From assembly GCA_015680685.1 (NCBI GenBank), contig MNCI01000415.1, forward strand, positions 441,086 through 505,085: a stretch of DNA of 64,000 bases, written 5' to 3'. The translations under genes and the position numbers were made by a program. The stretch is from Gnetum montanum (taxonomy: Eukaryota; Plantae; Gnetophyta). Positions 14,824-61,900 of this stretch are shown in pieces (within the stretch, counting starts at the first letter, position 1; each line of letters starts with the position of its first letter). The notes beneath the pieces are model-generated. The model did no database searches, had not been told where the DNA came from, and worked only from the letters and a program-made list of their open reading frames with translations.

Positions 14824-14969
14824 ACAGCTCTATTGGATTGAAGGGTGCACCAAAGCTTTATGTGTTGGAGGAGAATACATAGACTCAACCAATTTTTTTG
14901 AGAGCTTTTCTAGGCTTTTGGTTTTGAAGAAAGGTATTCTCTTTTACAGTTGTCAGAACTAGTAGCAGG

Positions 14970-17318: not shown

Positions 17319-17459
17319 TATGTCTTATTGGTGTGTTGTTATCATTATATAAATTTTTTCTTTAATTAACCTGAAGGTTTGTTTAGGCTCCCAACGATGT
17401 GAGTGATATCCTATGTTCTATTCAGTGCACAAACATGTTGTCCCCAACAATGGTGCCAA

Positions 17460-18374
17460 TTATGAGTGGTGAGATACCCCTACACTCAACCATACGAATA
17501 TGAGCGTAGCACACGTGATCTAGTTGAACTCCGTAGACTAAGTGCCTACACGCCCCATGGAACACTTAGGGTTAATTATTTGTTGTCTTTCTAGACTCAC
17601 TTGTAGTTGTCACGGTGTATGGTTAAGTAAGTCCAAGGTTTATGATTTTTATGGTTTTTATGTTTTATCTCCTATGCTATTGAGTTGAAGGGTTGAGAAA
17701 CTAATTACTAACTCTAACTAATGAACTAAGTCTAAATTACCTAGTGTTAGCATTCATTCCCACTTACCATACACACCCTGAACCGATGCAACTGTGGCTA
17801 CCAAACGCTAATCGTTGTTGGGATCACCACGTGTAATGCACGTGCTCAAAGTGGTTGTACTGAGGCACTTAACTAGGAGGAAAGGGTTGAGAAAATCTAA
17901 TCTAGCCTAAGTGCGATGAGCATCCGTTCCTTGATTATCCGTACACATCTTTAAATGCTCATAATCAAGTCATCCTGATTCTATGTTACTAGGAGATAAG
18001 GGTGAGAGAGAAAGTACTAAATAACATTAAATAAAATCCTATTCCATGCACTGCAAGGTTTATCTAGGAAGTTCTTCTTTATTTCTGTACACAACTTGTG
18101 TTCAGGTACAATGTTGCTCGAATAAAGATCCGTTCACTTTAGGACTCCTACTACGAGCACATGGAAAATATTCTATCTCTGGAGTGATCAATCTGCCATA
18201 GTTTTCCTACTTCTAGCCTAGGATGATGAAACAAGGGAGATCCACCTCTTATTTATAGATATGACGATGCACCGTGATATCGTGTACGCGATATCGCAGG
18301 GGACAACACGATATCGCGTACATGATATCATGACGGCCGCGATATCGCAGCCTGTGCAATATCGCGTCTCATAA
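17460..18374 (-). repeat. 5' LTR of element B
   Basis: Adjacent to the PBS; TATAAATA on the minus strand at ~18250-18257; GCGATATCGC palindrome cluster. Confidence 0.9.
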
Positions 18375-19514: not shown

Positions 19515-21080
19515 ATGGCTCGCAAGAAGATTGGAACATCAAGGGATCCTCCAAGGTAAGAAGGCAACAGGAGCATCATCAAATAAATCAAGCTCTTATC
19601 TACCTCAATTTTGCTCCAATAATGTTCAACATCACTTTGAGGTACCTTAAGCTGTATCCATTGTTTCTAAAAGGTCTCTAAATTTTCAATAGCATCATTA
19701 AAAGGAATTGATGGTCTTCTTTCAAGATATAAATTGGATTTTTTTTCATTATGATGAATTTTTGTATTCCTAAAATCCTCATTCAAGAATTCTATTACAA
19801 CATTATTATAACTAATGTTACTATTGGAGCTTCTTCTACCACTCTTGGAGGAATTTCGATTAAAGTATCCTCTCAAATAGTCAATGCCATTCTTCACATC
19901 TCTAATTCTAAGGTACATAGAGTTTCTATTCATTCTAAGACAAATATCTTTGCCAATGGTGTGTTTCCTATTACCCATAACAAGCTTTGCAATGTTCTCT
20001 TTGGAAAATCAAAACCTTTGAAAGGCATCAAAATACTTAGGAGTCAAATGGCCCAAGATGCTTCCACACTCTCCCTCATTATCCTATATAACATTGTTGT
20101 AAGGGAAGGACGTTACAATTATGTGTTACCTACCCAAGCATTTGTTCTCTACTATCTTCTCCTTGGACTATCACTAGCTTTAGGATACATTCTTTGTAGA
20201 GACATGTTGGGGTTGTTCCCCAATTAAAGAGTTTTTGGACATCCTCTTCTCATCAGTTATCTAATCAAATAGTCAAGGATTCTCATACTAGATATGCCTT
20301 TATTAAAAGGTAAGAGGAGCCTTGGTGAATTTTGAGAAAAGAGGATCATTGTACATATAGAGCCTAAAGTTCTATCCTTCAAACATCAGAAAGCTAGGAG
20401 GAAGCAAGCCTTGCTTGCATCTAGGGCCTCTTCTCAACTTAGGAGGTCTAAGTCCATGATTTTTTCAACCCTTAAGAAGGCACTAAAGCCATTTGCAAAC
20501 ACCTTTGGGATGATTGACAAAACTCTATCTTGCCTTTGTAAGAGAATGGATGCTATAGGAGTACCTGAACTAGTAGATGGACATTAGTTCATGGAGATCA
20601 TCACTCCTCCTATCTCTAATGATGAGAAGGTTATTCTTGCTCCTACCAAACATTCTATTGCAATCAAGCCATCTTGAGCTTATGAATCATTATATGCATC
20701 TAACTCTAAGAAGCTTATAGCACCATTGACATACATCCAAGGGAAGTCCATTCCTTATCATGATTATCTTGGATCCAATTCCTATTCTCATGAGGATATT
20801 TCTCAATCCTTTGAGTAGCATGAGATAAATAGAATTTTTGACATTGCATCTCATTGGAGATTAGATGATCCTATTACTTATCAGAGAAAGGATTCTTCCT
20901 CTTCCTCATAGCAAGCTTCATCCCAACTTTCATCATCACAATTTTAGGTGAAGCTTTGTCCTTGAAGAGCTACTATTAGAGTACATTCATTTGATGATGA
21001 TGAAGACAAGCAGCATGTCTCTAGCACTAGTACTAATAGTGATGAGGAGGAGGAGGAGACTTATAGATCCTCTCATGCAA
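19515..21080 (+). pseudogene. ENV-like / putative plant transposon protein (Transposase_32-like) ORF of element C
   Basis: MARKK start; LIQEFYYNI...VSSQIVNAILHI...IILYNIVVREGRYNYV...YYLLLGLSLALGYIL...GHPLLI pattern; acidic C-terminus; homologous to 44417-46057. Confidence 0.7.
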
Positions 21081-23020: not shown

Positions 23021-23629
23021 CTTTTTGAAAGCTTCATTCCTCCACTTGTAGGAATGAACAGGGGTTTGGAAGAGGTGTTCCTACATCAAAATTTCTAGTT
23101 GTTGTAATGAAATTATTTTATAAATACTCCATAACATTTATATTTACTAAGAAGATCTACCTAACTTATGGTTGAAAATGGTTCAATAACCACACTATAA
23201 GCTAGGGGATACACTAACAATCCAAGAGTACATTTCCAAATCAAACATGGACATATGAGATTTTATTATGAGAAAAGATTAAAATGCTAAAAATAATAAA
23301 ATAAATGAAATAAATAGTCATAATAAAGTAGAGCACTACTAATATTAGAAATCAATGATGATGGAAAAATAAGTGATTTTAAAAAGAAATAAAAGGGATT
23401 TTTCTTTGTTATATGGTAGTAAAAGGTTTTGTTAAATGTCTACATTGAAGGAGGAAGAATAAAATGGATATAAAAACAAAAAGAAAAAGTGAGATAAAAC
23501 TCTTAATTCTTACTACTAAAAAAACAAAGATATATTAATATTAGGGTGACAAAGAAGTTGACTAATTCTGAGCAATGTTGGAGATAACAGATCAAGTGAA
23601 GTATGAAAATAAAATCTATAGATGATGAT

Positions 23630-25182
23630 TGAAACACCGTGAAAATTGTGAGTCAGCCTCAGGCGAAGATTCGCGATTCAAACAAAAGTACATGAAAAAA
23701 TTCCAGAAAGAAGAACAAGGTAGGGCAACGCAAAGAGGCGCGCGGCATCAAGACTTTGGTTTCCTTTCGCAAATTTCTTATCTTACTATGTTTTCTGTCT
23801 TTACGCTATAATACGCAATGTAGCGTAATGATGCTCAGCGTAACATAGTCTGACATTAGAAGGCGGTTTACTTCAACAAATTTGATGAAGCCTAAGGCCT
23901 AAGCAGCGTAATATGCGACCCTCGTGTATTCTACTAAGTCTTTTGTCCAAGGGCAAAGTTATGCTCTGTTACACAAGGCAGCGTAACGAGCTTTGGAAAT
24001 GTCAAAAAAGGACCCAAAGGAAGCGCAACAGGTCAAGTTACGCTCATTACGCAACGCAGCGTACGCAGCATAATCCATTGCCAAGTTAACCATTGTTTAC
24101 GCTTCACTACACTTGGCAATGTGAACCAGCGTAAAGCAGCTTGAGTCCCTTACTTGTGTGCTTTATTACGCTCTAGTACATGACGCAGTGCGTACGAGTG
24201 TAATGTAGCCCAAAATCAATTAAGACATGCCCGATCCACATTTGTTATTCATACGCACAATACGTAGATGCGCGTATTGTGCATAGTCATGAATTTCAGC
24301 ATAAGGATGATCAAGTCAACGATCTTTCGAAAGGTTTGAAACACGTGTCAGCACAGCCATTCCTTTTCCACATGTCGTTAAACTTATAAATACCTCAGTT
24401 GGCAAGAGAGACAAGAGGGGACGATAGAAAAAGAGACACAGAGACACCAAGACAGAGAGAGAGCAGCATTTTTCTAGCAATCATTTGGCAGCACTATCTT
24501 CCTTCAGAGACAGGAGACATTTTGCCTGAGCATTGGCAGCAGGAGCGATTACCTCTTTGGCGAAGACACAACTTTCTCCATTGGTGATCGTCAGCAGTTT
24601 CGAGAAAAGACTACCTAAGGCAAAAGGAGCAGATCAGAGATCAAGAGATCATCTGGTGTGGTTTGTGAGTTTCTATTGGCCAGAAGCAGTTGATCAATAG
24701 ACGTCAGAACTTGACCTTCCTTGCATCCTATCTCTGGCCTACGAGGTAGATCAAACTCCATTCTGTATTTCTGCTTAGATAGTTTTCCTTGTTATTTTGT
24801 GTCTGCTTCACACAAGGCAATCGGGGTCTCCCCAATGTAACGTGATATACAAAATATTCATTTTTTAGGTCAAAGTCATAGATCTTGAAATCACGCGTTT
24901 CTCTCGTGTCTGATTCCTTTTTATCGCGTTAACATTATCATTATTGTAATTCATCTGCATTGTTTTTCTCTCATTTCGCAACTCATCGAATCAAATCGTT
25001 CAACGAAACATTCATAATCTCCATCAGTTTACTGATTTAGTAAGTCCTTGTCTAATCGACAAGACCGTTCAGGGCACCGCAGATTCGTTTTCTACAGCAC
25101 AGCCCTCGCACGGATCCGCGGTTAAGACTGTGTACACGGATTTTGTTTGGTATTCTAGTTGCCGACATTTTCCGTCGTTACA
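23630..25182 (+). repeat. 5' LTR of element A (1553 bp; TATAAATA at 24385-24392)
   Basis: tgaaacaccg...cgtcgttaca, repeated at 39648-41201. Confidence 0.97.
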
Positions 25183-25188
25183 GTTTTC

Positions 25189-25207
25189 TGGCGCTAGAAG
25201 GAGGGCC
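25189..25207 (+). promoter_or_regulatory. Primer-binding site complementary to the 3' end of plant tRNA-Asn(GTT)
   Basis: TGGCGCTAGAAGGAGGG, 6 nt downstream of the LTR. Confidence 0.9.
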
Positions 25208-25441
25208 TAAGCTCCGATTCATATTTTTTACGGGTAGCCCTATTAGCGATCTATACCCGCGTTGCCAAAAACGTGAACGTAATACCTCTAGGGAAGTTTA
25301 CGAAAGTTCGTGTGGTGTAGATCGGTTGCTTTAACGATTCTTTTGGAATCCTACAGGGTAGAAAGCCTAAACGTGATCTTCTTTGCCCATTGTTTTTTTT
25401 CTTAGATCCAGTCGTTTATTATCAACCAATCTACTTGATCA

Positions 25442-28400
25442 ATGGATCCATCTTACACAACCACAACCGCCATGGTCGCCGCTGACTTGGATGCTACATC
25501 TGTGAATCCTATCACTGTCACCAGGCTAGCTCCTGGTGCAGCAGGACCTCAGGGACCATCACGTCGATCATTGAGGCTACAGGGAAAATACCCAATATTT
25601 ACTGTCGTGACCCTTGAGGAATACAACTTTATCTGTGTCAAGATCTAGGCAAAGATGGCCCTTAGCCGAGCTGAGATCGAGGCGAAGAGAAATTTCGAGA
25701 TGATCCATCGAGGAGGCCAAGATTTCACCCCGACAACCTATGACATCATCCCTTTAACAGACCAGCAACATGAAATTATAACACAGTTGGTCATGGCTAA
25801 GAGCCAGGCTGCACGAGCTATGACGGAACCCCAGAGTGGGGAGGAAGAAGATGATGAGTTTGCATCCCAGTCTGAGCATTCGTATCACACTCTTAGTCCC
25901 CATACTTACGTCAACCCATTATTCCCTCTTAACGGAGAGGCCGCCTCGCTCAATCTAGCCATGACCACACAAACACACATCCCTAGCAATTCCGTGAGGC
26001 ACTGTGCAGCCATCTGGGCTGCAAGTGCAAATACCCCACAACAACATGGGGGCGGCTTCATCACCACGTGGACTCAGCATTCTGGTGGCGGTTCCAACAT
26101 CCACCATGCCCCATTTCATCCCGCAGATCCAACCCCAAACCATATCCACAACTCGTCTGATGCAGACCTTATCGCTGCCGCCCCCTCTAACCCAGCAGTT
26201 CACCACCATTGTGCAGCCATAGATACCTACCCAACAGCCTACCGCGAATCAGTGAACCTATCCCACGACACAACAAAACCAGTCTACAGTGTACAGCGTG
26301 CAACCCTTGGTGGCACCCGCAACACATATCCCGTAGGTGATCCCGCAATATCCCTATCCTTATCCTGCGCAGCTGGAGGTGGCTAATCTCTCTTCCCAAA
26401 CCAGTGGACAGTGGTCTTCACAGGCACCCCTGCCTGCAGGGGTCCCCACCCCACCATCTACCGGCCAAACCATCCCACCATTTCCACTGCATGGCCCTGC
26501 TTTCCCAGGTCACCCCCTGCTCCTCCTGCATAGACACCTCCAGCAACAGGTCTAGACCACGCCTTCCTACTTATTCAAACCCTCACCAAGGAGGTTAGGC
26601 ATCTTAAGGTCGCTAGCTCAGACACTGTACAAATCATGAACTTTTACCAAGATGATCCCATTAGTCCAGCGGTCCCCATGTTGTCGTTGCCACCAGGGAT
26701 ATCCTTACCTCATTTTACCAAGTATAATGGGGAGGGGGATCCTAACGCTCACTTGGTCACCTTTAGATCCGAATCCTTGTTGTTGCAATAATGGCCTCAC
26801 ACGATTATCCGCGTGTTTGCTATGTCTCTGACAGGGAAAGCTCTAGATTGGTATCGAGCCCTCCCACGCTCTTCCATTTCAACCTTGGAAGAGCTTCTAA
26901 CACAATTCGTGACTCACTTTAAATACAACTTAAAGCTGGAAGTCACGTTAGATCAACTCATAGGAGTGAAACAAGATCCTCTCGAACCAGTCTAGAAGTT
27001 CATACAGCGCTGGAATGCTACTTTGAATGAAATTCGTGAGCCAATCGCGGACTCACATTTGCTGGCCATCTTCAAAGGATCAGTCAATGACTTTATCAAG
27101 TCAAAGCTATATTATCTTTCCCCAAACTCCTTACATCAGGCCTTCACTCAAATTAGAAGCATCCAAGATGCTGCGGAGGCCAGCAAAGACCTGGCGTATG
27201 TCACCTACAAAAATGCTCACAACAAAGGCAAGGACAAAGGTAAAGCGACAATGACGACAGTGGCTGCGCTGGCTAAGGGCACAAAGAACAAGAACAAGAA
27301 GGTACCTACGGTGCCTCCTAAGACCACGGCCAGTGCAAGTAGCACCAGCCAGGACACAGCTACCCCTGAAGGCCCCCCCCCCCCGGCCAAAACCAAACTT
27401 TGAGTGTAAAGATCGCTCAAAGTATACAGCCTTGCCTGTAAAACATTCAGAACTGTTGAAACAATTGTTAGGGGCCGGATACATTCAACCCAAAAGGGTA
27501 TCCGAAGAGGCTCTGAAGCGTCACAGACGTCATTGTGAACTGCTGAAGAATCCTTCTTTAGCCCTGCCTAACGAGTCACTAGTTCCAAAATCTTTCAGGC
27601 TAGACCGTTTCTGTGACTACCACCAGTTGTGTGGTCACGACACAAATTACTGCTGGGGGTTGAAGGATGACATTCAACGCATGATTGATGACGGTCATCT
27701 GAAACTAGACGGCAGTAGTTCGACGCGTCCAAAAAACCAAGCATTGCACGTGTATAAAGATTCGTTGAATGCAAACAATGCGCCTTATACAATCAATGTG
27801 GTGAGTACGGACAGTGAGAGGAAAGTACCACCCAAACAAACTTTTGTTTTGTGTGTACCTACCAACTCACAACAGGAGGGAAACCTTTCATCGATAGCCA
27901 GTGGTGTCTCAAGGCCACCATTCATCATTTGGGCACCTTCTCAGAATGCCACTCAGCCACGTAGTAACAACCAAGCTGTGGCCTCGTCCACGCCCACGCC
28001 TAGGGCACCCTTCATTCTCAGGGCGCCAAAACCACCGGCTGCTCCTCTCACGGAGGGGCAGACCTCTAACCAAAACCACCAACCAGTGCCCGACAAACAA
28101 AAGGGAGAGGATACACCTATCAGCGTTACAAAAGACCACTCTACGCTCGGCTTCCCTAAGCCTAGGCCCCTGGCCTCCGTGCCTTCGCCTGTACCTCAGA
28201 GGTAGGATAAAGGTGTAGAAACGCAGCCACCTCCTCTCGACGAGAAAAGGAATAACCCCCTGACTGACGTCATTCGACCTTGGGAGATTCGTCTCTTGGG
28301 ACGAATGGAAGAAGACAAGAGAAATAAACAACCTAGCCAAGAGAAGAACCTCCTCAACACATTTACGCAATTCAAACAGGCTCTGAAGCAAAAAAATACG

Positions 28401-29198
28401 ACGCTGAGCCTCTATGACCTGCTTATGACATCCCGAGAACACCGTGAGGCTATGGTCCGCATGCTGACATCCATATCTGTGGACGAAAGCTTACCAGCGG
28501 AGGAAGCAGCGATACACGCTATCATGTTTCCTTCTGAAGCTAAGCAACCTAAGCCTACCTTGCTGACCTTTCATGACGAATCTATCAAAGATGATCCTGA
28601 AAAAGGTCAAGTGACAACTGAACCCATGTTCATCACTATTCAGGTTGGTCAATACCTGATCCGGAGAGTACATGTGGACGAATGCGCAGCTGCAAACGTC
28701 ATTCCTTATCCCATCGTGGATAGGTTGGGTCTGGTCGACCAGATCATTCCCACGATGACAACATGCATAAAGTCGTTCAATGGAGCAAGGGTTCAGGTCA
28801 AGGGGACAGTGCGTATCGAATTTGTGGCAGGAGATCAATTCCCAATGGATGCCACATTCCTAGTCGTCGAGGAGATGCCTGGGATTAACTTGATCTTAGG
28901 GAGGTCCTGGTTAGCCCAGCTGAGGACGGTTTCATCACCGATACATTAGGAAATACACCTACCTTACGCAGGAGGGGAGGTCGTAATACGTGGTGATGAA
29001 ATCACCCCCAGGACTGTCAAAAACATTGAGGAAGAATGAGGTTCGGAGATAGAAACATCGCATGATCAGACCCATCTTCAAGTCCCTCAACAAATTGAAA
29101 CCAATGATGACAGTTTAGCCTGGGCCAACCTACCATTTCAAGATGGCGACGTGGAAGAATCAGACTGTAAACCCCTCCGCCCTTACGCAACACTAAAC
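25442..29198 (+). pseudogene. gag: gag-protease of element A (stops and frameshifts)
   Basis: YNGEGDPNAHL; FAMSLTGKALDWYRAL gag core; CDYHQLCGHDTNYC (CHHC) knuckle; protease RRVHVDECAAANVIP...NLILGRSWL. Confidence 0.92.
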
Positions 29199-29483
29199 GT
29201 AAAGGCCGTTAAGAAACAATTACGAATTAGCAGTTGAACTGAACGGCATTTACGCACATTATCATGTTTTTTTTACCAATTATCATTGTTTACGCTTAGC
29301 AGTCCATTTTCGCTCAATGCATATTTACGCTATAGAAATTCTAAATGTTTACGCTTGTCATTCCTTCCTTACACTATTACATTTCTGTTATGTATGCATT
29401 TACGTCTTTTGATCACTTTAGCCCAAATACGCAAAAAAATAAAAATACATTACCATCAATTACGCTCTCTACATTACGCAAAG

Positions 29484-29744
29484 GGGCCCGCAATGGCCTT
29501 AAACTAGCCAGGGCCCACAACGGCCTTAAACTAGCCATGGCCCACAACAGCCTTAAACTAACCGTGGCCTGCAATGGCCTAAAACTAGCTCCCAGATTAC
29601 GCAAACTCGCCAGATGGCCCGCAATGGCCTAAAACTAGCTGTGGCCCGCAATGGCCTAAAACTAGCTCCCAGATTACGCAAACTCGCCAGATGGCCCGTA
29701 ATGGCCTAAAACTAGCCATGGCCCGCAATGGCCTTAAACTAGCA
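29484..29744. repeat. 8 x 27-bp tandem repeat (tggcccgcaatggcctWaaactagcca) with two identical ~23-bp inserts
   Basis: Directly visible. Confidence 0.92.
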
Positions 29745-29998
29745 ATTCCATTCCGTCACAACATAACTCAGGCAAAATTGTTAACAACTACGCTTACGCT
29801 TTGCAGATAAAAATGCAAAAGATAAAAATTAAATAGACATTTAAAGACAAAAATCTTATAGCTAGTCTCTCAGTCATTCGCATAACCATTGTTAACAACA
29901 GTCAATAAAACCATGCATAAATCAAAATTACACATCTCCTTTGATGCCACTGTCACCAGTATCTCTCAAATCCGGTTCTAGTCCTAATAAATCGTCCT

Positions 29999-32900
29999 CT
30001 ATTGGGCCTTCTCTTCTGGGAAGTATTCCTTCATGAAGAATCCCCTCCTCATGAGGTTCTTGCTCTTGCACCGGCTCTGTAGGGGGACGCTCTTCATCAC
30101 TACGCCCCTTTTCTTATACCTGTTCCTCAGCTGACTCCTCTTCCCTATCCTCTTCGGGTACCTAGATATAGAAAAACACATTAGCTAGATAAAACTTGGC
30201 AACACAGTCAGAAAATTTAGACTTAGTCATGATTAAACTTACTCACGATGGCCCTGCTTCTGCAACAAAGGGAAGCTTTTCCAAGCCGGCCCATAGGCGC
30301 TCCATGATTTCATCCTCAGTCAGGTAAGACCACACTTCATCTCCTAGAGCAGCTCCAGCCTTCACCTTCCCTTTCTCCATGTTAGTCCAGCGAGGCAGGT
30401 CAGGGAAGAAAGTAGGGACGGTAGTCTTGTCCCCGGGGAGAGTCACCTCCCTTTCCGGGGACGCACTTACAGTCACCTGCTCTTGAAACTTCTTGAAGGC
30501 TTCGGATGCTCCAATGACGTCTAGGAAGACTCGCAAGGATTGGGCCTCAACGGTAGAATCACGATAATATTGACGATAAGCGATACTTTCATGCTTATAC
30601 AAATGCTTGTGGTCCTTTTTCTTCTACCCCCATTCCTGCACACTTGCACAGTAATCCCTCCAGTCTTGGCTTTTCTGAGCTAACAGCTCTATCTGCATCT
30701 GTTGCTCCACCAACACCCGACCGGTTTGCACGCTGTTCTTAATGGCGGTCCAATAACGGGAGTAGTCAATAACAGCAGTGCGCCCGTCTTCATCACCTGT
30801 TTCCCGCGCTTGTAGGAACTTGCATCGCGACTTTAGGTCCCCGACCTCTTTGGTCAGAGACTCATTCTTCTCCTCTAACCTCTGCACCCTTTTCCAGAGG
30901 TTCTCATTTACACCCTTACTCTTCCATAAGGACCATGTCGAGCGTAACGCACATTTACGCATCTCTTCATAAATGTGGTGTGGCACGACTGCCCCATCAG
31001 ATGGAGGCTCCACTGTGTCCAAATCAATGGGCTCCGTTGGGTCCCATCGAAGGCGAGCTCCTAACAGCAAGTATTGTCAATATATATGACACATTACTAC
31101 TGTACAATAAAATAAACCTTTTATAACTACAGTGTACTAGCCTCAAGATCGACGCGCTCGAGACGCTTGATCATATCGCTGACAACGCCTTTCATGAAGG
31201 TGAACTTGTTAGGAAAATCTCTCCATGCTCTGCTCACAGCGGCGGACATGGATGCATCCTCTTCTCCTGTAGCGTAGTCAAGTTAGAAACTCTAACTATT
31301 AACAAAATTCTACAAAGTTTCCAACACGATCATTACCTCTACCAGTAACAGTAGGAAGCTCCCCAACATCTTCTACCTCCTTCCTCTCTTCACAGACAAG
31401 AGCCTGTGTGTCGCTCGCCCTAACAGCTGGGGCCTCCTCATGCACAGGAATCCGTGCATGGCTCACACTAACTGCTGGGGCCTCTTTTTCTAAAACTGGG
31501 GCCCCTTCCCCGCGACTTAAGATTATTACCCCTGTTTCAGGGGTCAACTGCTCCATAACTTTTTCTGGTCATATCACATGATACGCTTAAGACACTTTAA
31601 AAAAAATCCTAAATAAACATTGCGTAATACAACTTGCAATATATTTCTTCCACGCTTACCAGGCGGAGGTTTACTCCAATGAACTCTGACTTCCATGGTT
31701 CGACCTGTGCCACTCCCAGGCTCCGCAAAGGGCTCGGTTATACGAAGCCATTTACGTCGAGCTGCAGGTTCTACAATTGCCGCCATCAAACGTTTCCCTT
31801 GTGAGGCATCGCCAGGGTAAGTAGGCATTATCCCGCCTACGCTGTCAAGGCCTCGCATTTGAGACACTGCCAAATCTCTGGTCGTTATAGCCAGAGAGTC
31901 CCTAATCCCTTCTGGGGGATCCTGTCCACGCGTAGTGCTGAGAATGTGGGTTATCCAAGGTCTGGATAGCTGGTCTCGGTCTTGCTGCACCCAGACCCCA
32001 TTCCTTTGGATAACCAAGAATTCAGCAAAACGCCGAAGGTAGGCTACGAAGAAGGCGTAATGCACATTGAAACGAGACTCGAGCTTCTTGCGAAGCCTGA
32101 TCATCTCAGTGCGCAGCCCCTCAGCAAAGTAGCTTACCCAGTTGAATTGGGTCCCTTCCTCGATAACCTCCCACATAATATGGGTCTGCTCTATGGAAAA
32201 GAATCACCCCTGCGAGAGTGTTTTGGGGAAAGCCAGGGCCTGAAAAAGGGGATAAACCGTCTTCGCAATTTCTAGTTTGATGCTTTCACAAGGGATCCCT
32301 TTAGGCTCCTTCGTGACCCCTACCCACTCCTCCAGCCATTTCTGGTAGTTGAGACTCCTCTTCGCCTTTTCCTCTATGGGGAGGCCGTCAGAGGGGACGC
32401 CGAAAAGGTCTTCAAAGAGCTAAGCATCAATGTCAAAACTTACATGCACGTGATGCATGCGTGTGCAAAAACGCTCTGCCCTTTCGCTGAAGGAGTTGAC
32501 CAGCATTAACATTTCGCTGGCGGGGACATCAGGGGTCGTGGCTAAAAACAAATGCATTAGCCTTGCTTCTCGTATCTTGGCAACCACCGCAACTGGGGCC
32601 GCTGCGTGGCCAAGCCAGCGTTGTGCATCCTTGATGTCACCATAGCGGAAGAGGAGGGTATTCGCCTCGCGGCCAAAAATTGTAAGGGTAATCTCCCGGG
32701 ATTCCCTGACTGAGCAATGTAAAACACAAGTCAAACAAAACACTATCACGCAACATTCACAATTCACAATTACACCACGCAACAATAGGATACGCAGTAG
32801 TTTTACCAGGTCCAAATGGCAATGGAAATGGAGGAAGTTTCCTCTGCACGTCCGCAACGGTAAGGGGTGGATCCAAAGTCCAGTCGTCATGTAGCCACCT

Positions 32901-34012
32901 GAGATTCTAGCAATTCTCGAAAGCGTCAGCATAAAGGGTGGGGTATTCATGAATGTCGAAGCCGATCTGCCCCATAACACCAGCATGTATGTTACTAGTA
33001 GAGGTAAACGCCTTTATTGCAGTTTCAGTCCAGGTTAAGGTATCACCATCGCCTACTAACCTGTTCTCGTGGATGAAAAACTTGTACCATACCATGTAGG
33101 TTCATCTTACACTTCACAATGAACTCAGAAAATAGACATATAATGACAAAATAGCCAACAAAACTGCTTACCCGCCTGAGTAGTACACTGTGCCTGGTGG
33201 GTTCTGGAAATAGGTTGAGACATGGCGGGCCACGAACAAAGTGTTGTATGCGTGATAGCAACTAAACTGGGCCATTTCCCAGATCCAGCCTAAGCACCTC
33301 AAACCTTGGGCGCTAAGGTCTCGGTCTTTGGGACGACCAGTATTGATGGCTCCGTCTATCAAGAAGGCCAAAATTCCCTGTGCGGAACCCACTAACAGGT
33401 GCTCCAAAATGGCACCAGCAACATCGCCTAACAAATTTGACCATATAATAACGTTGTAGTTACGTAGTAAAAACTGCAGAAACTCCAGCGCGCCCTTTCG
33501 AAACCATATGGCCCTCCCATGCAACCGAGTATGCGAGGGAGGGACATTAGGCACGATTGGGTTTATGCAGCACAAAACCCCAACGATATCTAGGACGATT
33601 AAGACAGGCTTTAGCATAACACTGTACAGAAAACGCAATAAACAGATCAACGTCTAGATTCACATTTACATGTTTAATTATAGAAAATCTACAAACTACG
33701 CTTAACCATTCATGCCGAAATCGCCCAAACCCTTGCAATAGTGCAAGGTTTGTCCCCGACAACGGTGATAAACGCACACCTTTAAACCCTCATCATAACG
33801 CAAGGTCCATAGTCTAAAACCCTCGTTTACATGAAACAACGCTATAGAAATAAACACTGCTGAAACAACACAAGTATGTAAGGAATGGCCTACCAGTTCA
33901 AAGGCATAGGGTCCCTCACTTCGACCACCGCCTACGAAGTGCGCTGCAGATTCTCTTGCATCTCATCGATTTTCGTCAATTTCGCGTTCTTCCATTTCAC
34001 TTTCGGCGCCAT
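29999..34012 (-). pseudogene. Antisense multi-exon accessory gene of element A: FCP1/NIF HAD-like domain + PMD-like domain + coiled coil, ~1020-1080 aa reconstructed
   Basis: Exons (minus): 34012-33894, 33621-33172, 33087-32807, 32709-31660, 31564-31337, 31266-31138, 31060-30247, and 30161-29999 (last one tentative). GT..AG introns join the exons in frame; the intron 2 acceptor reads TG. Five internal stops, no frameshift needed. Homologue at 58938-62190. Confidence 0.85.
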
Positions 34013-34495
34013 CGTCACAGTCTCAAAACTCTCACAGTTTCACACTTTCACGTCTTTGCAAATTATGCGCTCTAAGCTTCTACTCCTCTTCCTCTCGCTT
34101 TGTAACAGTTAGAAATTCGAATTTGCGATAGCCAACAGCCCATCCTTACTGAAAACTGCTTACTTATATGCAAGATTTAACTGACTTGATACCTGATTTC
34201 AGCAAAAACTTACCCAAATGCTGGTGTCAGTATGATCTGGAACCTGATGATCAAGGCATTAATTGCACTAGATACCGCACGCATTACGGTCCGAAACGAA
34301 CCTAAACTACTGTAGCTTATCTCCTCGTAATCAGGTCTCATTAATTACAGGTTGTTCGCAAACTTTAAAATTCAGTTACCTTTATGCAGCAATGTCACGT
34401 CACTTCCTGTACACTAAACTAAACATATTCGTTCAAAGCTTATAGCATCAAACTTAGTATCTGTCTAATTACTCGCGCATTTGACACTTTTGCAG

Positions 34496-37400
34496 GATAA
34501 TCCACAGATGGACGAAATGTTGTCTGCATCGCTAGTTTTAGCAAGCCCACATGGTGAAATCGTTAGACAATTTGATCCCACATTAATAGAAACTAATCTA
34601 TCCCTTGATGATGTAATTATAGCCACATCAGAAACATCTCCAGACTGGCCAGAACAATCGACACGCATGCTAGATCTGGAAGCTCGAGACGTAACCGAAG
34701 ATCCACTCAATGAGATTTCTATGGTTACGCATAGCGGCGAGACCAAAACTCTCAAGGTTAGTTCTCTATTAAACCAAAAGACACATGATGACATAAAACA
34801 AGTCCTCCAGAGTAACATCACAGTGTTTGCATGGTCATACGAGGATATGCCAGGACTAGACCCAAGATTAATTCAACACAACATAATTCTAGATCCTCAT
34901 ATCAAAGCCGTTAGACAAAAACGAAAGATCAAGCCAGAAGTCACGCTAACAGTACGTGATGAAATCACTAAGCTGTACCAGGTAGGTTTCATTCGCGTAG
35001 TTGATTACTCATACTGGGTATCCAATATTGTAGTAGTTCCCAAAAAGACTGGAGGAATATGTATTTGTATAGACTTTCGGGACTTGAACAAAGCTACAAT
35101 CAAGGATAACTTCCCATTACCGAGTATCGACCAATTGGTGGATACAACTGCTGGGCACGGGCATTTGTCCTTTATGGATGGCTTCTCAGGCTATTATCAA
35201 ATATGCATTAACCCAGAACATCAGCTAACAATGACATTTATGACATCCTGGGGGACCTTTTGCTACACCATGATGCCTTTTGGCTTAAAAGCACTGGATC
35301 AACATATCAACAAGCTATGACGTACATCTTTAGCGACTACCTCTTAGGAAGGCTGAATGATTATGTTGACGATATAGCTGTTAAGTCTTTAAAGTTCGAA
35401 GATCATTCAGAGGACCTAGAGTTAGTCCTCAAAAGATGCTCTAAATATGACCTCCGACTTAACCCAAAAAAGTGTGTGTTCAGAGTCAAAATCGGACACA
35501 TGCTGGGTTTTGTGGTATCGGAAGCTAGCATACGTGTAGACCCTGACAAAGTCAAAGCCATTGTTGAATTGGCACCCCCTACAAGTCTTAAGAAATTATG
35601 CGGACTACAGGGAAGGTTACAGTTTATCAGGCGGTTCATCTCGAGATTAATCGACAAGCTACACCCTATGCAACATTTGCTTAAGAAGGGGGTTAATTTC
35701 GAATGGACAGATGATTGTCAGCGTGCGTTCGACAGCTTGAAGCAGGAACTTCAACACTTGTCAATAGTTTTCCCGCCGCAAAGGGATCAACCATTCTATA
35801 TCTATATTGCAACTTCAGACGTAGCCTTAGCGCGTTACTCTGTCAAAGGAGGGATGATGGGTCAGAAGTACCCATCTACTACTTGAGTCACGCTCTATGT
35901 GCGTATGAAACGAGGTATAACGAAGTAGAGCGTAACTGCTTAGCGTTAGTATTTACGCTCAAAAAGTGCAGACATTATCTTTTCCATAGCCAAGTTAACA
36001 TCATCTGTAAAAATAACATCCTTAGGGCCATTATGCATAACTTATACAAAAGTAGCAAAATAGCTCGTTGGAAGGCTATCACAGCAGAATTCGACTTGTA
36101 TTACATTGGCCAATCTTCTACGAAGGGCCAGGCCATAGCCAACCAATTAGTAACATCTCCTATTGACAGTCAGGTAACCATAGAGCCTGAATTTCCAGAC
36201 GAATATGTACATAGTGTAAGCCCTATCTTAACAGGCCCCGAAGCGACGTTGTATTTCGACGGAGCTTCAACCGCTAGAGGTGGTAGTGCCACCACCGTTA
36301 TTACGCTATCACCTGAGGATGTGCGTCTCCACGCTTATCGCTTGACCTTCCCCTATACGAACAATGTGGTAGAGTACGAGGGGCTCCTCAGAGGATTACT
36401 AGCTGCAAGTGAACTCGATGTTCTACACTTGGCAGTTAGGGGTGATTCGATGCTCGTTATCAATCAAATCACAGGAGTCTACGCCTACAAAGCTGCACAT
36501 TTGCAGCCCTACTGCGATATGGCTAAAGATCTTCTGAAGCAATTCACGACCATTGATGCCCAACACGTGCCACGAAATGATAACACACTGGCCGATGCAC
36601 TGGCTACTCTGGCCTTAAACGTGCCTTCACATCTACTCGACACTTGTCCTGCTTTAATAACAAATTGTACAGGTCCTATCGTTTAGGTGGCACAAATATC
36701 TGCTCTTCTCGAAGAAAGCACGCCAGAATGGTATGACAACATTAAAACTTACCTCTTACAAGACGAGCTACCGCACGATTTGACACGTGCGTAGAAAGAT
36801 GCAATCCACAATCAAGCTAGGCAGTACGTAGTCATAGGAGACAGTACTCTCTGTAGACGCTCTTTTGATGGTGTGCTGCTTACCTGCGTTAATAAGGACC
36901 AAGCATAGCGTATCGTTGGCGAGGTTCACGAGGGATTATGCGAAGGACATGTAGCACCATGGGTTATGGCTTCAAAAATTCACCGCTTAGGGTACTACTG
37001 GACATGCATGGAAAAAGATTGCCTGACAAAGGTTAAAACTTGTGACACGTGTCATCGTCATGTAAATCTTATACACGTGTCGCCTATAGAGTTATATACA
37101 ACTCAGATAACATGGCCCTTTCAACGATGGGGACTAGACATTATAGGTCCCATCACGCCGAAATCTTTCGCAGGTCATAGCTTCATAATTACCGCAACTG
37201 AGTACTTTATGAAGTGGGTAGAAGCTATTCCTTTAAGGAAGATCACATCTCAACAGATTTGCCATTTCATCTTAGATAACATTATAACCAGATTTGGTCT
37301 CCCGATGACTATCGTGACCAACAATGGGCCACAGTTTAGTAGTACGGAAACCAAATCCTTCTGTGATAGCCTCGGCATTAAATAATCTTTTTCCTTGCCC

Positions 37401-37970
37401 TACTACCTACCAGCGAATGGTCAAGCTGAAGCAATAAACAAACCCATCATCAATTTGCTCAAGAAGATGCTCGACAACAACAAGAGACGGTGGCATGAAA
37501 AAATCCTCTATGTGCTATGAGCGTATCGTACTACATGTAGAACGACTACAGACAGTACACCCTATAGCCTAGTCTATGGATCTAAAGTAGTGCTACCTCT
37601 CGAGTTGCAAATTCCTTCTCTGAGAATGGTCCTCTCCACGATTATAAATGAGGCTCAACACACCGAGTCCCGGATTATGGATTTGGACTCAGTAGAAGAG
37701 AAGCGAATACAGATGGTTGATACAATCGAAAAGTATCAAGACAAGCAGAGGCAAAAGCATCGTCACAATCTTCAGCAGCGTCCGATCAAGAAAGGAGATT
37801 TAGTTCTCAAGGTTGTTTGCGAACCAGTAGGCAAATTCTCTGCAAACTGGGAGGGCCCTTTCTTGGTGACTGATGCGTATAACAGTGGAGCATTCAAGTT
37901 AGCGGATGTTAACGGCAACGAGTTACCAAACCCTATCAATCATATATATCTGAAGCGGTACTACATATAA
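34496..37970 (+). pseudogene. pol: pol of element A: RT, RNase H, archaeal-type RNase H (aRH), integrase
   Basis: FAWSYEDMPG, CIDFRDLNKA, SFMDGFSGY, YVDD; aRH LYFDGAS...NNVVEYEGL...GDSMLVINQ; INT zinc finger, WGLDIIGP, NGQAE, WEGPF. Two frameshifts and several stops. Confidence 0.95.
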
Positions 37971-38004
37971 TTGCATCTCCAGTGTGAATATCAGGTATGG
38001 CCAC

Positions 38005-38495
38005 CATCATTCGCTACGATGCTAAATTGGCAACAAACGTCCGCTACGACGTAAAACTGGCACTCCCCTCATGCGTCCGCCATGACGCTAAACTGGTACT
38101 GACCGTCCGTCACGACGCAAAACTGACACATTGTAACCATCTGCTACGATGTAAAACTGGCAATGTTGTACAGGTCTGCCAAGATGGAAAACTGGCATCT
38201 TTTGCATGCGTCTGCCACGATGCTAAACTGGCACCGGTTGTCCGTCATGACATAAAACTGACAAAGGTAAGTAACCGTCTGCTGAGACGTAAAACCAGCA
38301 TAGACTTGTCCTTGGGTCATGACATAAAACTGACATCCACAGCATGGTCTGCTGAGACCATAAATCAACCCCGTCACCGTCCGCTACGATGTAAAACTAG
38401 TATTTCTCAGTCCGCCCAGACTTTAAACTGGGACCATGGTCTACTGAGACTTAAAATCAGCAATGACAGTCTCCCAGGACTTAAAACTGGAACTC
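38005..38495. repeat. Degenerate tandem array (ccgYYaYgaYgYWaaactggca) immediately after integrase
   Basis: About 15 aaactgg/aaactga units; explains ORF 37997-38626. Confidence 0.85.
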
Positions 38496-39631
38496 CCAAC
38501 TGCTCTCATGCAACTCAAGCGAGCGTGATTATCTCTGTGCAGCTGCAAGACACATGGGATGGAACACTGGAACCATTCCAGCATCACTACCCCACCGGCA
38601 TCCTACTGATTCCTCGGATGTGCTGAAGGGCATACTACTGACCCCTCGGAGATACCATCACCGCACCCATTTTAGTGGTGGCACCTCTGAGAGGTTCATT
38701 TCGCCGTCTGAAGCCCCAAAGGCATTCGCATCAACTGCGGCTTTGGGGATCTCTGCTCATCATCACTATCAGGCTCTGGCTTCACAGATTCATCTAGCCG
38801 GTTCTTTGCATGACCAGTCAGATGCGCTGAGTCTGATGTTCTTTGCCGGCGATATGCTGGGCCGAGCATTAAGGGTGAAAACTCGGGCCTCGTGCTACAG
38901 TTCCTCCTTCATGGCCTGACCAATTTATCTTGCCTCTAATAGCACTTGTTTCAACAACCTCGCCTACAATTCGCACGGACAATGGTATCCTCTATTTTCT
39001 TCTTTGGTTGCAGGTTACTTGCTTCGAGGATGTCATTCAAAAATGCATTCATCTGAGCGGTCAAGTACAAACAACGTTTTGAAATAGCTACTCAGGTTAG
39101 CTTATCCACTTAGAAGTGCATCCCTGTTCCCCTTATAATCCTACCCTCAGCTCTTACTGTACTTCATCTCTACCATCTGCTTCCCGTTTGCAAAAATCTA
39201 CGCACGCAGCACTTGTTTTCCACATTCGCATTACAATCAAGTCCATAAATCGGCGTAACGCAATTCACCTAACGGACGCAAAAAAAATGGGGCCAGCAGA
39301 ATGGGTGAAACACATCCACCCAGGCCATGCAGACGCAACACAATTCATCTATGCAACCCCTTCATCTACAAAATGACGGCATAACTCCATGCTAACACAC
39401 CTGCAGGAGAAAGCCTAATTGCTTATGCATGAAGAAGACGTCCTTACTCATTTGAGTCTTCCTGGAACCTGTTTCCTCTTGTACCATCTTATCTCCTACT
39501 TCCTCCATCTTTGCTCTTCTATGTTGACAGGGCGACACTTGAGTAGCCATTGATGAACGCTATTAGTGTTTCTGCCTCTCCGGTGTTTCGTATTCTCTGT
39601 CGATGTCTTTCGGGCAAGCCCTCTAACCGTC

Positions 39632-39646
39632 AACAAAGAGGGGCCA
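39632..39646 (+). promoter_or_regulatory. Polypurine tract of element A
   Basis: aacaaagaggggcca directly before the 3' LTR. Confidence 0.85.
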
Positions 39647-39647
39647 T

Positions 39648-41201
39648 TGAAACACCGTGAAAATTGTGAGTCGGCCTCAGGCAAAGATTCGCGATTCAGA
39701 CAAAAGTACATGACAAAATTCCAGAAAGAAGAACAAGGCAGGGCAAGGTAAAGAGGCGCGCGGCATCAAGACTTTGGTTTCCTTTCACAGATTTATTATC
39801 TTACTATGTTTTCCATCCTTACGCTATAATATGCAATGTAGCGTAATGACGCTCAACGTAACATAGTCTGACATTAGAAGGCGGTTTACTTCAACAAATT
39901 TGATGAAGCCTAAGGCCTAAGCAGCGTAATATGCGACCCCTCGTGTATTCTACTAAGTCTTTTGTCCAAGGGCAGAGTTACGCTCTGTTACGCAAGGTAG
40001 CGTAACAAGCTTTGGAAATGTCAAAAAAGGACCCAAAGGAAGCACAACAAGTCAAGTTACGCTCATTACACAACGTAGCGTACGCAGCGTAATCCATCAC
40101 CAAGTTAACCATTGTTTACGCTTCACTACGCTTGGCAGCGTGAACTAGCGTAAAGTAGCTTGAGTCCCTTACTTGTGTGCTTTATTACGCTCTAGTACGC
40201 GACGCAGTGCGTACGAGTGTAATGTAGCCCAAAATCAATTAAGACATGCCCGATCCACATTTGTTATTTATACACACAATACGCAGATGCGCGTATTGTG
40301 CGTAGTCACGAATTTCAGCATAAGGATGATCAAGTCAACGATCTTCCGAAAGGTTTGAAACACGTGTCAGCATAGCCATTCCTTTTCCACATGTCGTCAA
40401 ACTTATAAATACCTCAGTTGGCAAGAGAGACAAAAGGGGACGACAGAAAAAGAGACACAGAGACACCAAGACAGAGAGAGAGCAACATTTTTCTAGCAAT
40501 CATTTGGCAGCACTATCTTCCTAAAGAGACAGGAGACATTTTGCCTGAGCATTGGCAGCAGGAGTGATTACCTCTTTGGCGAAGACACAACTTTCTCCAT
40601 TGGTGATCGTCAGCAGTTTCGAGAAAATACTACCTAAGGCAAAAGGAGTAGATCAGAGATCAAGAGATCATCTGGTGTGGTTTGTGAGTTTCTATTGGCT
40701 AGAAGCAGTTGATCAATAGACGTCAGAACTTGACCTTCCTTGCATCCTATCTCTGGCCTATGAGGTAGATCGAACTCCATTCTGTATTTCTGCTTAGACA
40801 GTTTTCCTTGTTATTTTGTGTCTGCTTCACACAAGGCAATCGGGGTCTCCCCAGTGTAACATGATATACAAAATATTCATTTTTTAGGTCAAAGTCATAG
40901 ATCTTGAAATCACGCGTTTCTCTCGTGTCTGATTCCTTTTTATCGCGTTAACGTTATCATTATTGTAATTCATCTGCATTGTTTTTCTCTCATTTCGTGA
41001 CTCATCGAATGAAATCGTTCCACGAAACAATCATAATCTCCATCGGTTTACTGATTTAGTAAGTCCCTGTCTGATTGACAAGACCGTTCAGGGCACTGTA
41101 GATTCGTTTTCTCCAGCACAGCCCTCGCACGGATCCGCGGTTAAGACTGTGTACACGGATTTTGTTTGGTATTCCAGCTGCCGACATTTTCCGTCGTTAC
41201 A
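39648..41201 (+). repeat. 3' LTR of element A (1554 bp)
   Basis: Direct repeat of the 5' LTR, followed by the TSD. Confidence 0.97.
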
Positions 41202-52530: not shown

Positions 52531-52538
52531 CCACTTGG

Positions 52539-52631
52539 CTCTCTCTCTCTCTCTCTCTCTCTCTCTNNNNNNNNNNNNNNNNNNNNNNNNNNNNNNNNNN
52601 NNNNNNNNNNNNNNNNNNNNNNNNNNNNNNN
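52539..52631. repeat. (CT)n microsatellite running into an assembly gap (N 52567-52631)
   Basis: Directly visible. Confidence 0.95.
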
Positions 52632-58937: not shown

Positions 58938-61900
58938 TGTATTACTAAAACCTATTTTGATCATCATGGAGTTAGCGGGGATTTTGTATTACACATGGAT
59001 GGCTACACATAATAGCTTAACCCCTAATATGAACCATGAAAAATGCATCCCAATATGGTTTAGACCTATCGCCAGAGAATTCTTGATGTACTTACTCCAA
59101 AATTACAATGTGATTATGTTATCACACTTGGCTGTAGATTTTGCAATGGTAATCACAGAGACTCTTGTGGCATGGTCTTCTAACTACATCTTGTATTCAT
59201 GGTGGATGATCCTAACACTCAAAGAGAAATAGTATGGAAGAAGGGCTTGTATTTAGTAGAAGTTTAATGAGTATTCCAAATTTGGAAGATTCCCAAGTAT
59301 TCGCAGTACAATGCTAACAATACCTTGATGCTGGGTCACCACATAAACACTCTATTCCAAAATCCTCCTATAACTATCTACCTACTATAAGTGTAAGCCT
59401 AGTCTTGAATTAATATATTTTATTTATTTATTATTTCAATGTTATTTATTCTAATGCTTTTTATGCTTTAATTTTCGTAGGTATAAGGCACACCATGGAG
59501 GATTAGTGAAAATTGACCAAACCTTATCTATGGCATGTACAACTTTGGAAGATTTTAAGCAAGGTGAGATCATAAGAATGTGAGTGCTTACCCATCTTGA
59601 TGCTAATTTTGGTAGGTACCTTATGCAGCATTGTCTCGTATATCAAATATGTATAACTACCAATCATGCATATGAATTTTGAGCTCTACAAGATTTAGAA
59701 GCATCTTCATAAGTTTAGCCTAAGTTTCTAGTTTTGCCTAAGGTTGATGAGTGGAAATTGGTTAAGCATGGTCAACATTTTAGTATTTTTTTATTTTTTA
59801 TTCTTTTTATTTTTGAGTTTTCAGTTTTTATGATTTTTGATATTTTCTATAGTGTAAAAGGCTAATGGGCTAGCTATGTTGTGTTGTAGATTTTGTTCAT
59901 GAGCCTACTGTTACTATGCTAACTTCAAGTCATGTTGAGGAGAATATTTTCTTCAAATGAGGTGAAGTAGATCAAGCACTAGCATGGTTAGCAAACAAAA
60001 CTCTTGCAAATGTCCAACAAAGGATCACTAATGCAAGTTTGTTTGATTTGTTCATGCTACATAGTCCATCCATATCATAGGCCAAGATGTTGAATGTGAT
60101 TAACTCTTTTAATGAGGGAATCATTAAATTTGTCACTTGTGTGCATGATGTTCCTATTTTCTGAATCATTAATGAGTCCATGTTTAGTGAACTTTTTGGC
60201 ATACTTTATAGTAGTGTTAAGGTAGTTGTTAGAGTAGGGAAGGATGTAGGCCATAGAGAGGAAATGGAGGCCTAGCTCAAATCACCTATCGATGCTACAT
60301 TATCTTTTAGTAGATGTGATGTTGAGAAGGAAAATGAGACTTATCCTCTTTTTCATTCTAGAGACTTTCCCATGCTACTATCGTAGAAGAGAACCATATG
60401 TGTTCAACAAGCTTGAACTATGAAAAAGGTTTTAACTAATAGCATTAGGTTTGATTGGGCTGCCTTCTTGGTCACTAGTCTAAGGGATGAAACCTAAAAC
60501 CTCCGTAATAACCTTGATTCTATATACCACATGCATTTTATGTTTTTTGGTGTATACATTAGAAGGTTCATGGAGTTCTTGGTGATTAGGAGAGATGAAA
60601 AGTGGGTAGCACATGATGCTTTTAACTCTCCAAGCCTTGCACTAAACACATTATTCAGGTGATGCATTTCCAAGATCCACCAATGGAGGAGATGGATGAA
60701 TCATTGTCTATTCCACTATGAATATTAGTGGTGTCCATGGTTATTTCCCTAATAGCATGGGGATTGAGCCCCATGCTATTTGTGGTAATTTAAAAAGAGC
60801 CAAAAGAATATGCATTGAAGTAGATGTCACCACTAGAGAAAAGATGAAGAGGCCACAAGTTGAAGAAAACATTCCTATTGTTAGCCATCCGGCATGTAAG
60901 ACACTAGCTATCAAATTTAACAAGGTCAATCAGGTTATTTGAGGTGTATATATATGTTATATATTTTTATTTTTTTAAGTTTTGTATTGTTTTTGGTTAT
61001 ATTGTGTTGATAAAAATTCTTACTAACTTATTCTATTATTTTTTTTAATTGATGTAGGAAAGAAACAAGTGTTAGCTACTTAGGCTACTATGAGGAGGAG
61101 CAATGATGCAACAAGGAGAGGAAAGGGCATCATGTTTTGGATTCCATCTTAGGTGATTTACCTTCAGGAAACAACACTTCGATAGACTTATCTCATGATC
61201 ATCTTGGTAAATTTTGATGTTGTTTATATTTTTGTTTCAAACTTTATATGTTTTTATGGCAAACGATATTATTGGTTATAGTCATTATAGTGCATGAGCC
61301 TCTTCTAGAACCATCCACATCTACATTATGTTCTAGGCCTTGGGTGAAGGTCCCAGACAAGATGGAATTCATGCAGAGAATGGTAAATGACATGGTTAAT
61401 AGATTATAGCATATAACTCTTGATATTGGTAAGAGAAGTTAGAACATTTTTATTTTGCATTTTTTTTATATTTTTATGTGTTTTCATGTTTTATGGCTAC
61501 ATAGTTTTAATAGTTTTTTTTTCTACTATTTTTGATTTTCTTGTGTTTTTTGGCTATGGTAGTGTCCAAAGTTAGATGGGATCCTACGTAAGACATTAAA
61601 TTTAATGAGCTTCCTGAGCTGCCACCCCATGTGGAAAATGTTCCATGGAGATTGTATGAAGGAGCTACCAAATGTGCTATATCATATGCAAAGACATCTT
61701 AATAGTTCCAATGATCTAATGAATTTTTATGAGAGAGAGTTGTGGCTTTGGAAAAATAGGTCAAGGAGCTATCAAATGAAAATAGGAGTCTTAGAGATCA
61801 TAAGGAATTTATAGAGGCCTGTGTGACCAATAGAGTCTGTTTGTGTACTAAGGAGATCAAGTGGTCATGCTACTGGAAGGTTCATAATATGTAAGGTTAC

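Follow-up and report, generated by a model that had tools for sequence, protein, structure and literature searches.

We analysed 64,000 nucleotides of the Gnetum montanum genome (GenBank assembly GCA_015680685.1, contig MNCI01000415.1, positions 441,086 to 505,085; hereafter the window), in which a long terminal repeat (LTR) retrotransposon, element 1, carries an additional gene in antisense orientation between its protease and its reverse transcriptase (RT). The predicted exons of this gene encode a likely inactive NIF-type phosphatase domain, a conserved domain that is probably a distant plant mobile domain (PMD), and a coiled coil. Element 1 is laid out as follows, in window coordinates.

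23625-23629, directly before the 5' LTR: 5-bp target-site duplication (TSD) ATGAT, with a second ATGAT after the 3' LTR
23630-41201, plus strand: element 1, LTR retrotransposon of 17,572 bases
23630..25182, plus strand: 5' LTR, TG...CA, its ends read from the sequence
25189..25205, plus strand: primer-binding site, 6 nt past the 5' LTR
26540..29177, plus strand: gag and protease region, with a frame change and stops inside
29178..29925: non-coding spacer of 748 bases, in which TACGC occurs 12 times; it includes a tandem array (27/77 bp) at 29485-29767
34465..34495, plus strand: candidate 3' end of a protease-RT intron enclosing the antisense gene, with a branch-point-like CTAAT and an acceptor-like TTTTGCAG
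34496..37970, plus strand: pol, with RT, RNase H (RH), additional RNase H (aRH) and integrase (INT), the Tat 'structure 1', with frameshifts and stops
39648..41201, plus strand: 3' LTR, followed by ATGAT

The two LTRs are 95.3% identical over 1556 columns, and the primer-binding site is presumably the complement of tRNA-Asn; no tRNA genes were found in the window. Pfam recognises Retrotrans_gag in the gag region (E 1.7e-7) and RVT_1, RT_RNaseH, RVT_3 (E 4e-19), Integrase_H2C2 and rve in pol, together with Asp_protease_2 at about 28665-28910, under the cut-off (E 0.048). The LTRs, the 5-bp TSD and the order RT-RH-aRH-INT place element 1 in the Tat clade of Ty3/gypsy, this order being the 'structure 1' of the clade, which occurs in most land-plant groups (PMC10508981). 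The protease is separated by 5.3 kb from the RT frame, which starts at 34496. The CTAAT and the acceptor-like sequence before this frame would be expected if the stretch were an Ogre-like protease-RT intron (PMC4408406), for which it is a candidate; the RNA runs described below contain no spliced read for it.

The antisense gene occupies the minus strand from 34012 to 29926, where eight exons join in phase to 3,278 nt, about 1,090 codons.

33894..34012, minus strand: exon 1 (predicted), with ATG, a short basic N-terminus and one stop; an exon model
33172..33621, minus strand: exon 2, NIF/FCP1-type HAD domain, predicted inactive, frame open
32807..33087, minus strand: exon 3 (predicted), one stop, non-canonical acceptor in the element-1 copy
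31660..32709, minus strand: exon 4, conserved domain of ~245 aa whose N-terminal ~110 aa are PMD-like, followed by a variable linker; two stops
31337..31531, minus strand: exon 5 (predicted), low-complexity linker with a 48-bp duplication
31138..31266, minus strand: exon 6 (predicted), short conserved segment
30243..31060, minus strand: exon 7 (predicted), coiled-coil stretch, two stops
29926..30161, minus strand: exon 8 (predicted), acidic tail; besides the terminal stop it has one internal stop

All seven predicted donors and six of the seven acceptors are canonical, the exon-3 acceptor being the exception. Since seven premature stops interrupt the chain, the element-1 copy is a pseudogene. 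Splice sites and phases suggest that the NIF and exon-4 domains would be fused in one spliced protein. For exon 7, the bZIP and KASH matches in Pfam lie under the cut-off, coiled-coil families match below threshold in both elements, and a further search returned coiled-coil look-alikes only (<0.9, low recognition). Exon 4 (1050 nt, phase 1 at either end) had been singled out by a sequence-only reading of the DNA as a transposon-encoded, PMD-like domain fused to a phosphatase-like one. Its placement is borne out: the limits given are those of the exon (AG acceptor before 32709, GTAAGC donor after 31660), the peptides quoted (LMHLFL, MLMLVNSFSERAERF, FDIDA*LFEDLFGVPSDGLPI and FNWVSYFAEGLRTEM) recur exactly in the translation of 31661-32707 on the minus strand, and the exon lies inside the LTR element, antisense between protease and RT. 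The quoted frame holds two stops instead of the one reported, at codons 96 and 168 (32420-32422 and 32204-32206).

The same gene is found between the gag remnant and the RT start of a second, decayed Tat element.

About 53350-62570, opposite strand to element 1: element 2
53350-54433 and 54542-54850, minus strand: integrase and RT start of element 2, with a gag remnant at 62348-62572
58938..59392, plus strand: homologue of the NIF exon, decayed and frameshifted (tblastn E 4.6e-19; Pfam NIF E 0.0035, under the cut-off)
59890..60763, plus strand: homologue of exon 4, with 7 stops in 256 codons
61291..62153, plus strand: homologues of exons 6 and 7

By tblastn, exon 4 matches element 2 at 59892-60659 (+) with 30% identity over 229 aa (E 3.5e-31), and its local score of 314 compares with a maximum of 47 in 300 shuffles; blastn finds no match between the two elements in the exon-4 region. 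Because its homologue lies in a second element without a DNA-level match, exon 4 is more than chance. Measured against 300 shuffles each, conservation amounts to 46-50% identity for exon 2 (z 23-28), 29% over 234 codons for exon 4 (z 61), 38% for exon 6 (z 17) and 32% for exon 7 (z 17); exon 3 scores 33, under the shuffle maximum of 42, and no homologue of exon 1 was located in element 2. RT and integrase of the two elements are 52% and 59% identical. Third codon positions of the conserved exons agree at 28-32%, near random, a pattern that aligning as protein itself favours. Six splice sites are the same in place and phase in both elements (both ends of exons 2 and 6, the acceptors of exons 4 and 7). 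Judged by these comparisons, the antisense gene is a real gene under selection. The window holds no third copy of exon 2 or exon 4.

Element 2 has lost most of its RT-RH-aRH and protease. In the spacer between its RT and the gene (54850-57300) lie a tandem array with a 10-bp unit (55262-55678) and a longer, semi-palindromic motif that occurs three times (56461, 56675 and 56867), and a 2-kb direct duplication of integrase sequence, 73-74% identical, adjoins the element at 51427-54240. Two further decayed gag regions (9-2603 and 4425-5835, minus strand) are 54-63% identical to that of element 1. Downstream of the element-1 integrase, at 38005-38492, a repeat of 30-37 bp whose core includes a CG is arrayed in 11 copies. 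CpGs are retained in element 1 (observed/expected 0.77; LTR 1.01) and lost from its flanks (0.26 and 0.13) and from element 2 (0.09).

Exon 2 matches the Pfam family NIF (PF03031) with E 5.9e-5 and 23.2 bits, above the cut-off of 21.8, and 29 of its 30 matches in the ESM Atlas are NIF (0.92). The upstream phosphatase-like domain that the earlier reading had assumed is present in the same predicted transcript, and it is, as had been said, of another fold, HAD/NIF and not PP7/PPP; NIF is the only domain matched among the exons scanned, which contain no PPP metallophosphatase. Active FCP1/SCP-type HAD phosphatases have a motif I of the form DxDxT/V and an aspartate pair in motif IV, and domains of this type act on the tail of RNA polymerase II. 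Motif I reads DIVG in element 1 and ELAG in element 2; at motif IV, in a register that rests on an alignment of E 1.4, element 1 has A-R opposite the D-D of UBLCP1 and element 2 has L-G-H-H. Neither copy has the residues of an active enzyme, and the domain is likely inactive. Sequence searches of the PDB gave nothing usable (UBLCP1 and Tim50 at best, E 1.4-1.9), and none of 365 longer proteins compared with the NIF exon is a relative.

The PMD likeness of exon 4 was assessed by profile comparison. The PMD set comprised 121 plant loci fetched from metagenome contigs by a short motif, of which 32 with long open frames were aligned; PF10536 is found in all six aligned loci scanned against Pfam. 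Against this profile, exon 4 of element 1 gives E 7.3e-5 (probability 62) over 107 columns in the N-terminal half; the aligned part opens with the first PMD helix, includes the 'LGLPIDG' stretch and closes with the 'WL' helix. With the trimmed profile exon 4 scores 37.8, shuffles reaching 19.5 and 27.8 at most (0/200 as good), and 70 held-out PMD frames (of 89; at least 70 residues) reproduce the register at E 4.2e-4. None of 80 template shuffles reaches the all-PMD score, which brings the shuffles as good to 0 of 280 in total, and 11 control pieces of element 1, three of them out of frame, score 11.3-16.4 vs 38.2 for exon 4. A global alignment remains collinear for 185 columns, matches from the PMD N-terminus and sets F-N-W on the PMD Y-S-W. 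Of the PMD-like signatures originally described, the N-terminal one stands in register with the PMD profile, above all shuffled controls; the second (FNWVSYF) has no local signal alone.

Several results weigh against PMD homology. A profile built from both copies scores lower (E 8.5e-4, probability 24; 0/200 shuffles as good), the element-2 copy alone gives no signal (E 0.31), and neither does the C-terminal half of exon 4 alone, which 32 of 60 shuffles equal. HMMER ranks exon 4 third to fourth of 852 pieces at a non-significant E of 0.9-1.5; in the reverse search PMD frames are 3 of the top 20, vs 119/726 in the set. The best E, 7e-5 for one pair, becomes about 2 over all Pfam families. Pfam, in which PF10536 has a gathering cut-off of 34.9 bits, returns no PMD (PF10536), DUF1985 (PF09331) or Transposase_32 (PF20167) match for either copy at E up to 10. 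Membership of these families, with which the sequence-only reading had proposed a comparison, is not supported, and by this test exon 4 is not a member of PF10536. The invariant core E-R-W-x-x-E-T-x-x-F-H, present in all 32 aligned PMD rows (which were fetched by that motif), is not kept in exon 4, where only the aromatic spacing (F...F) and a downstream FG-P--G-P are seen. A two-sequence Transposase_32-like pair from the window, a weak query that also missed PMD, gives E 0.44 with exon 4. On the profile match and its context, antisense PMD with coiled coil being a known Tat pattern, we consider remote PMD homology of exon 4 probable.

PMD and VANC21 (PDB 9lnj) share a fold; no direct match of exon 4 with VANC21 was obtained. 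The single-sequence model of exon 4 has a predicted local distance difference test score (pLDDT) of 37, and Foldseek/VIA searches with it are meaningless; VANC21 is not among the best 50 matches listed. PMD has no match in the viral fold library. An exhaustive comparison of exon 4 with 1.84 billion representatives returned one match, a bacterial-type PKD repeat protein, which was rejected because its score is summed over repeats. No relative of exon 4 was found among 2794 near-length candidates (word-index search) or 109 shorter proteins (two-copy alignment), and metagenome and viral contigs contain no related loci. An extra open reading frame (ORF) of another family occurs twice in the window (19640-20800, plus strand, and 44812-45924, minus strand; 46% identical). 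Its copies match Transposase_32 (PF20167) at E 1.1e-5 and 0.083, under the cut-off, and may represent a second accessory gene of PMD-superfamily type.

The non-coding DNA of element 1 contains a candidate target for the encoded protein.

23801..24276, both orientations: TACGC/TTACGCW cluster, a set of candidate binding sites lying upstream of the TATA box (24385) in the LTR
11292-11912, 17457-18330 and 62604-62845: another LTR family with CG-rich GATATCGC-type clusters in its LTRs

In a count of words in this non-coding DNA that left out tandem arrays and the second LTR, TACGC, TTACGC and TTACGCT (14 vs 0.7 expected) are the most over-represented. TACGC occurs 16 times in the 5' LTR and 19 times in the 3' LTR, always within about 480 bases before the TATA box, at 23 distinct sites. 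Shuffling gives a mean of 2.2 for the 16 LTR copies and of 1.9 for the 12 copies in the 748-base spacer (0/300 shuffles in either case), with densities of 10-12 per kb in the LTR and 16 per kb in the spacer. By the same test the motif is mildly raised in pol and the antisense gene (1/300 each) and not raised in the 3' untranslated region or the spacer before RT. Within the window, 40 of 41 TTACGCW copies lie inside element 1 (chance mean 6.1). Seven of 28 motif copies read TACGCAA, and the reverse strand of the motif holds CGTA, which we take to be the core of NAC-factor sites, so that it resembles these. VANC proteins bind a short motif that has built up in the non-coding DNA of their own element (PMC5735166). 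Element 1 appears to share this pattern, a short motif accumulated in non-coding regions.

The motif as a target calls for caution. It was chosen after looking at the data, and the other LTR family has a CG-motif cluster of similar strength. In element 2, whose LTRs are out of view and whose CpGs are gone, the motif is absent, decayed forms included. The LTRs of element 1 differ by 72 substitutions, of which 52 affect CG or CHG sites. Inside the motif 9 of 23 CGs have changed, vs 18 of 61 other CGs. Because CG/CHG substitutions dominate and motif CGs changed equally often, this copy was methylated and unprotected after insertion. The other LTR family has gag/protease remnants at 14383-16091 with no pol seen; the gag end of element 2 contains one more copy of it as a nested insertion.

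Sequencing reads bear on both copies and transcripts. Two DNA runs, labelled as two organisms, yielded 17,565 and 16,979 contig pieces on 31600-33700, where read depth is not copy number. At the two exon-4 stop codons most of the depth has another letter (66% and 95% in run X1, 93% and 94% in run X8). Of 30 bins in X1, the three with the lowest depth all belong to the four intron bins; in X8 the lowest are two of these four. Where diverged reads end loosely at 32662, L-F-R-Y-G is kept through other codons (read by eye). Six RNA runs gave 22 to 1,280 reads, which come from relatives, being mostly <90% alike. In one of them, X14, first mates on the plus strand prevail in 27 of 30 bins and peak over exons 2-3 (41.6 vs 0.2), which by the usual library convention is minus-strand RNA. 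The RNA also speaks against a spliced gene: X14 coverage extends over all of element 1 and runs through intron 2 without splicing, and none of the six runs contains a joint matching a predicted intron. In the relatives' RNA reads the units of the array at 38005-38492 are arranged otherwise. At 38668-39600, a pile of opposite-strand X14 reads stops close to 39287, shortly ahead of the 3' LTR, where a run of A may be a site of internal priming or of polyadenylation of the sense RNA.

We tentatively read exon 4, with somewhat less than even confidence, as the central exon of a Tat accessory gene that may serve the family as its own anti-silencing or activating factor. The gene, antisense between protease and RT, would be spliced into a protein of ~1,090 residues with a likely inactive NIF phosphatase, a probable PMD/VANC-fold domain and a coiled coil. 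The PMD-like domain, we infer, would bind the TTACGCW motif clustered in its own LTR, the coiled coil would oligomerise the protein on the motif array, and the dead NIF domain would read phospho-peptides and hold a phosphorylated host partner; the family would stay transcribed despite host silencing. That all of this adds up to a VANC-like, sequence-specific anti-silencing system of Tat LTR retrotransposons, in which a PMD fold reads a family CG motif, the host transcription machinery is brought in by a captured, dead CTD-phosphatase domain and the gene is nested antisense in an intron, we regard as unlikely.

All the evidence for PMD homology also fits a remote PMD-superfamily domain with another role, for instance in handling the element's RNA or in anchoring its integration complex on chromatin, with the LTR motifs as host transcription-factor sites. 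The TACGCAA copies and the CG-motif cluster of the other LTR family agree with this, and Tat extra ORFs are without tested function (PMC4408406, PMC11963269). However, the motif reaches the same density in the internal spacer as in the LTR and is mildly raised in coding parts, which resembles VANC targets and not a promoter alone, and DNA motifs and silencing are what the known proteins with this fold act on (PMC5735166; bioRxiv 10.1101/2024.09.27.615353); another role is possible, if on balance not the likelier outcome. Exon 4 might instead be an unrelated, lineage-specific helical domain with a chance hydrophobic pattern, in a real gene useful to the element whose core is a pseudo-phosphatase adaptor and a coiled coil. 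The absence of Pfam and HMMER support, the missing invariants, the signal from one copy and one half, and protein collections without a relative would all follow. Chance sits poorly with a match that begins at the PMD N-terminus, stays collinear and sets F-N-W on Y-S-W, that beats every shuffle and control piece and that fits the Tat PMD-coiled-coil pattern, and we find this explanation unlikely. Very improbable is a captured host gene or nested DNA-transposon remnant, a passenger useless to the element. Seven introns are odd for cargo that passes through RNA, and both window copies are broken; yet antisense introns outlast reverse transcription of sense RNA, and the gene occupies the same slot in two families, conserved as protein with no DNA similarity. 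Moreover, no inverted repeat of at least 40 nt brackets it, a Pfam scan finds no transposase in its region in either element, and it is present on more than 16,900 contig pieces in each DNA run.

Returning to the anti-silencing reading, the link between PMD and VANC folds and the candidate LTR motif make it directly testable. Tat/Ogre elements inflate many large plant genomes, and their extra ORFs have been without known function since first described. If true, this would be the first time that a retrotransposon is seen to have a VANC-like system, the third case in which a PMD was independently paired with a phosphatase-family domain, and a testable answer to the role of the Tat/Ogre PMD extra ORFs.

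In the literature searched, which lay largely outside subscription journals, no paper was found that describes an LTR retrotransposon with a NIF domain or with an extra gene placed between protease and RT. A search of the PMC6317226 supplement gives no NIF, FCP1, HAD or CPDc entry, and a 2026 Tat survey (PMC13468544) does not mention extra ORFs, introns or phosphatases. The NIF pseudo-phosphatase fused to an extra ORF, the seven introns and the protease-RT position are apparently new. Since ORF surveys such as PMC6317226 were, by the methods given there, restricted to sequence up- or downstream of the polyprotein, they would miss this position. Extra ORFs of Tat lineages III-V encode PMD and coiled coil and lie 3' of pol or 5' of gag (PMC4408406); of 434 Ogre elements with pfam10536, 431 have it in 3' reverse position (PMC6317226 supplement). 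The present gene resembles these in its RH-aRH pol, its orientation antisense to gag-pol, its coiled coil (matches under the cut-off) after a PMD-like domain, and nearby tandem arrays. It differs in its place between protease and RT in both elements, its seven predicted introns, its N-terminal NIF pseudo-phosphatase and a PMD far under the Pfam threshold. In Retand, antisense TRP28 ORFs are situated after pol and before the 3' LTR (PMC11963269), and Tat elements of orchids have an AlkB extra ORF (PMC9289625), likewise conserved accessory genes of Tat-lineage elements thought to regulate the element, with other domains. As in the Ogre protease-RT intron (Steinbauerova 2008, as cited in PMC4408406), a non-coding stretch with an acceptor-like end parts gag-protease from pol; here, however, the candidate intron is 5.3 kb long and has a whole antisense gene inside.

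Among host genes, Arabidopsis MAIL3 is a PMD-PP7 fusion, and MAIN/MAIL1 form a complex with PP7L (PMC7156037). The parallel drawn at the outset holds as an analogy, a PMD-type domain paired with a phosphatase-family one; MAIL3 has a PPP metallophosphatase after its PMD, whereas this transposon gene has HAD/NIF before the PMD-like domain. VANC and the Tat PMD-coiled-coil extra ORFs are closer. Unlike VANC of the Mutator-like VANDAL elements, the gene sits in an LTR retrotransposon, includes a NIF domain and has a CG in its candidate motif. Like VANC, it is an element-encoded accessory gene with a coiled coil and a short motif in non-coding regions, and, if exon 4 is PMD-like, it would share with VANC21 a PMD/DUF1985-type fold.
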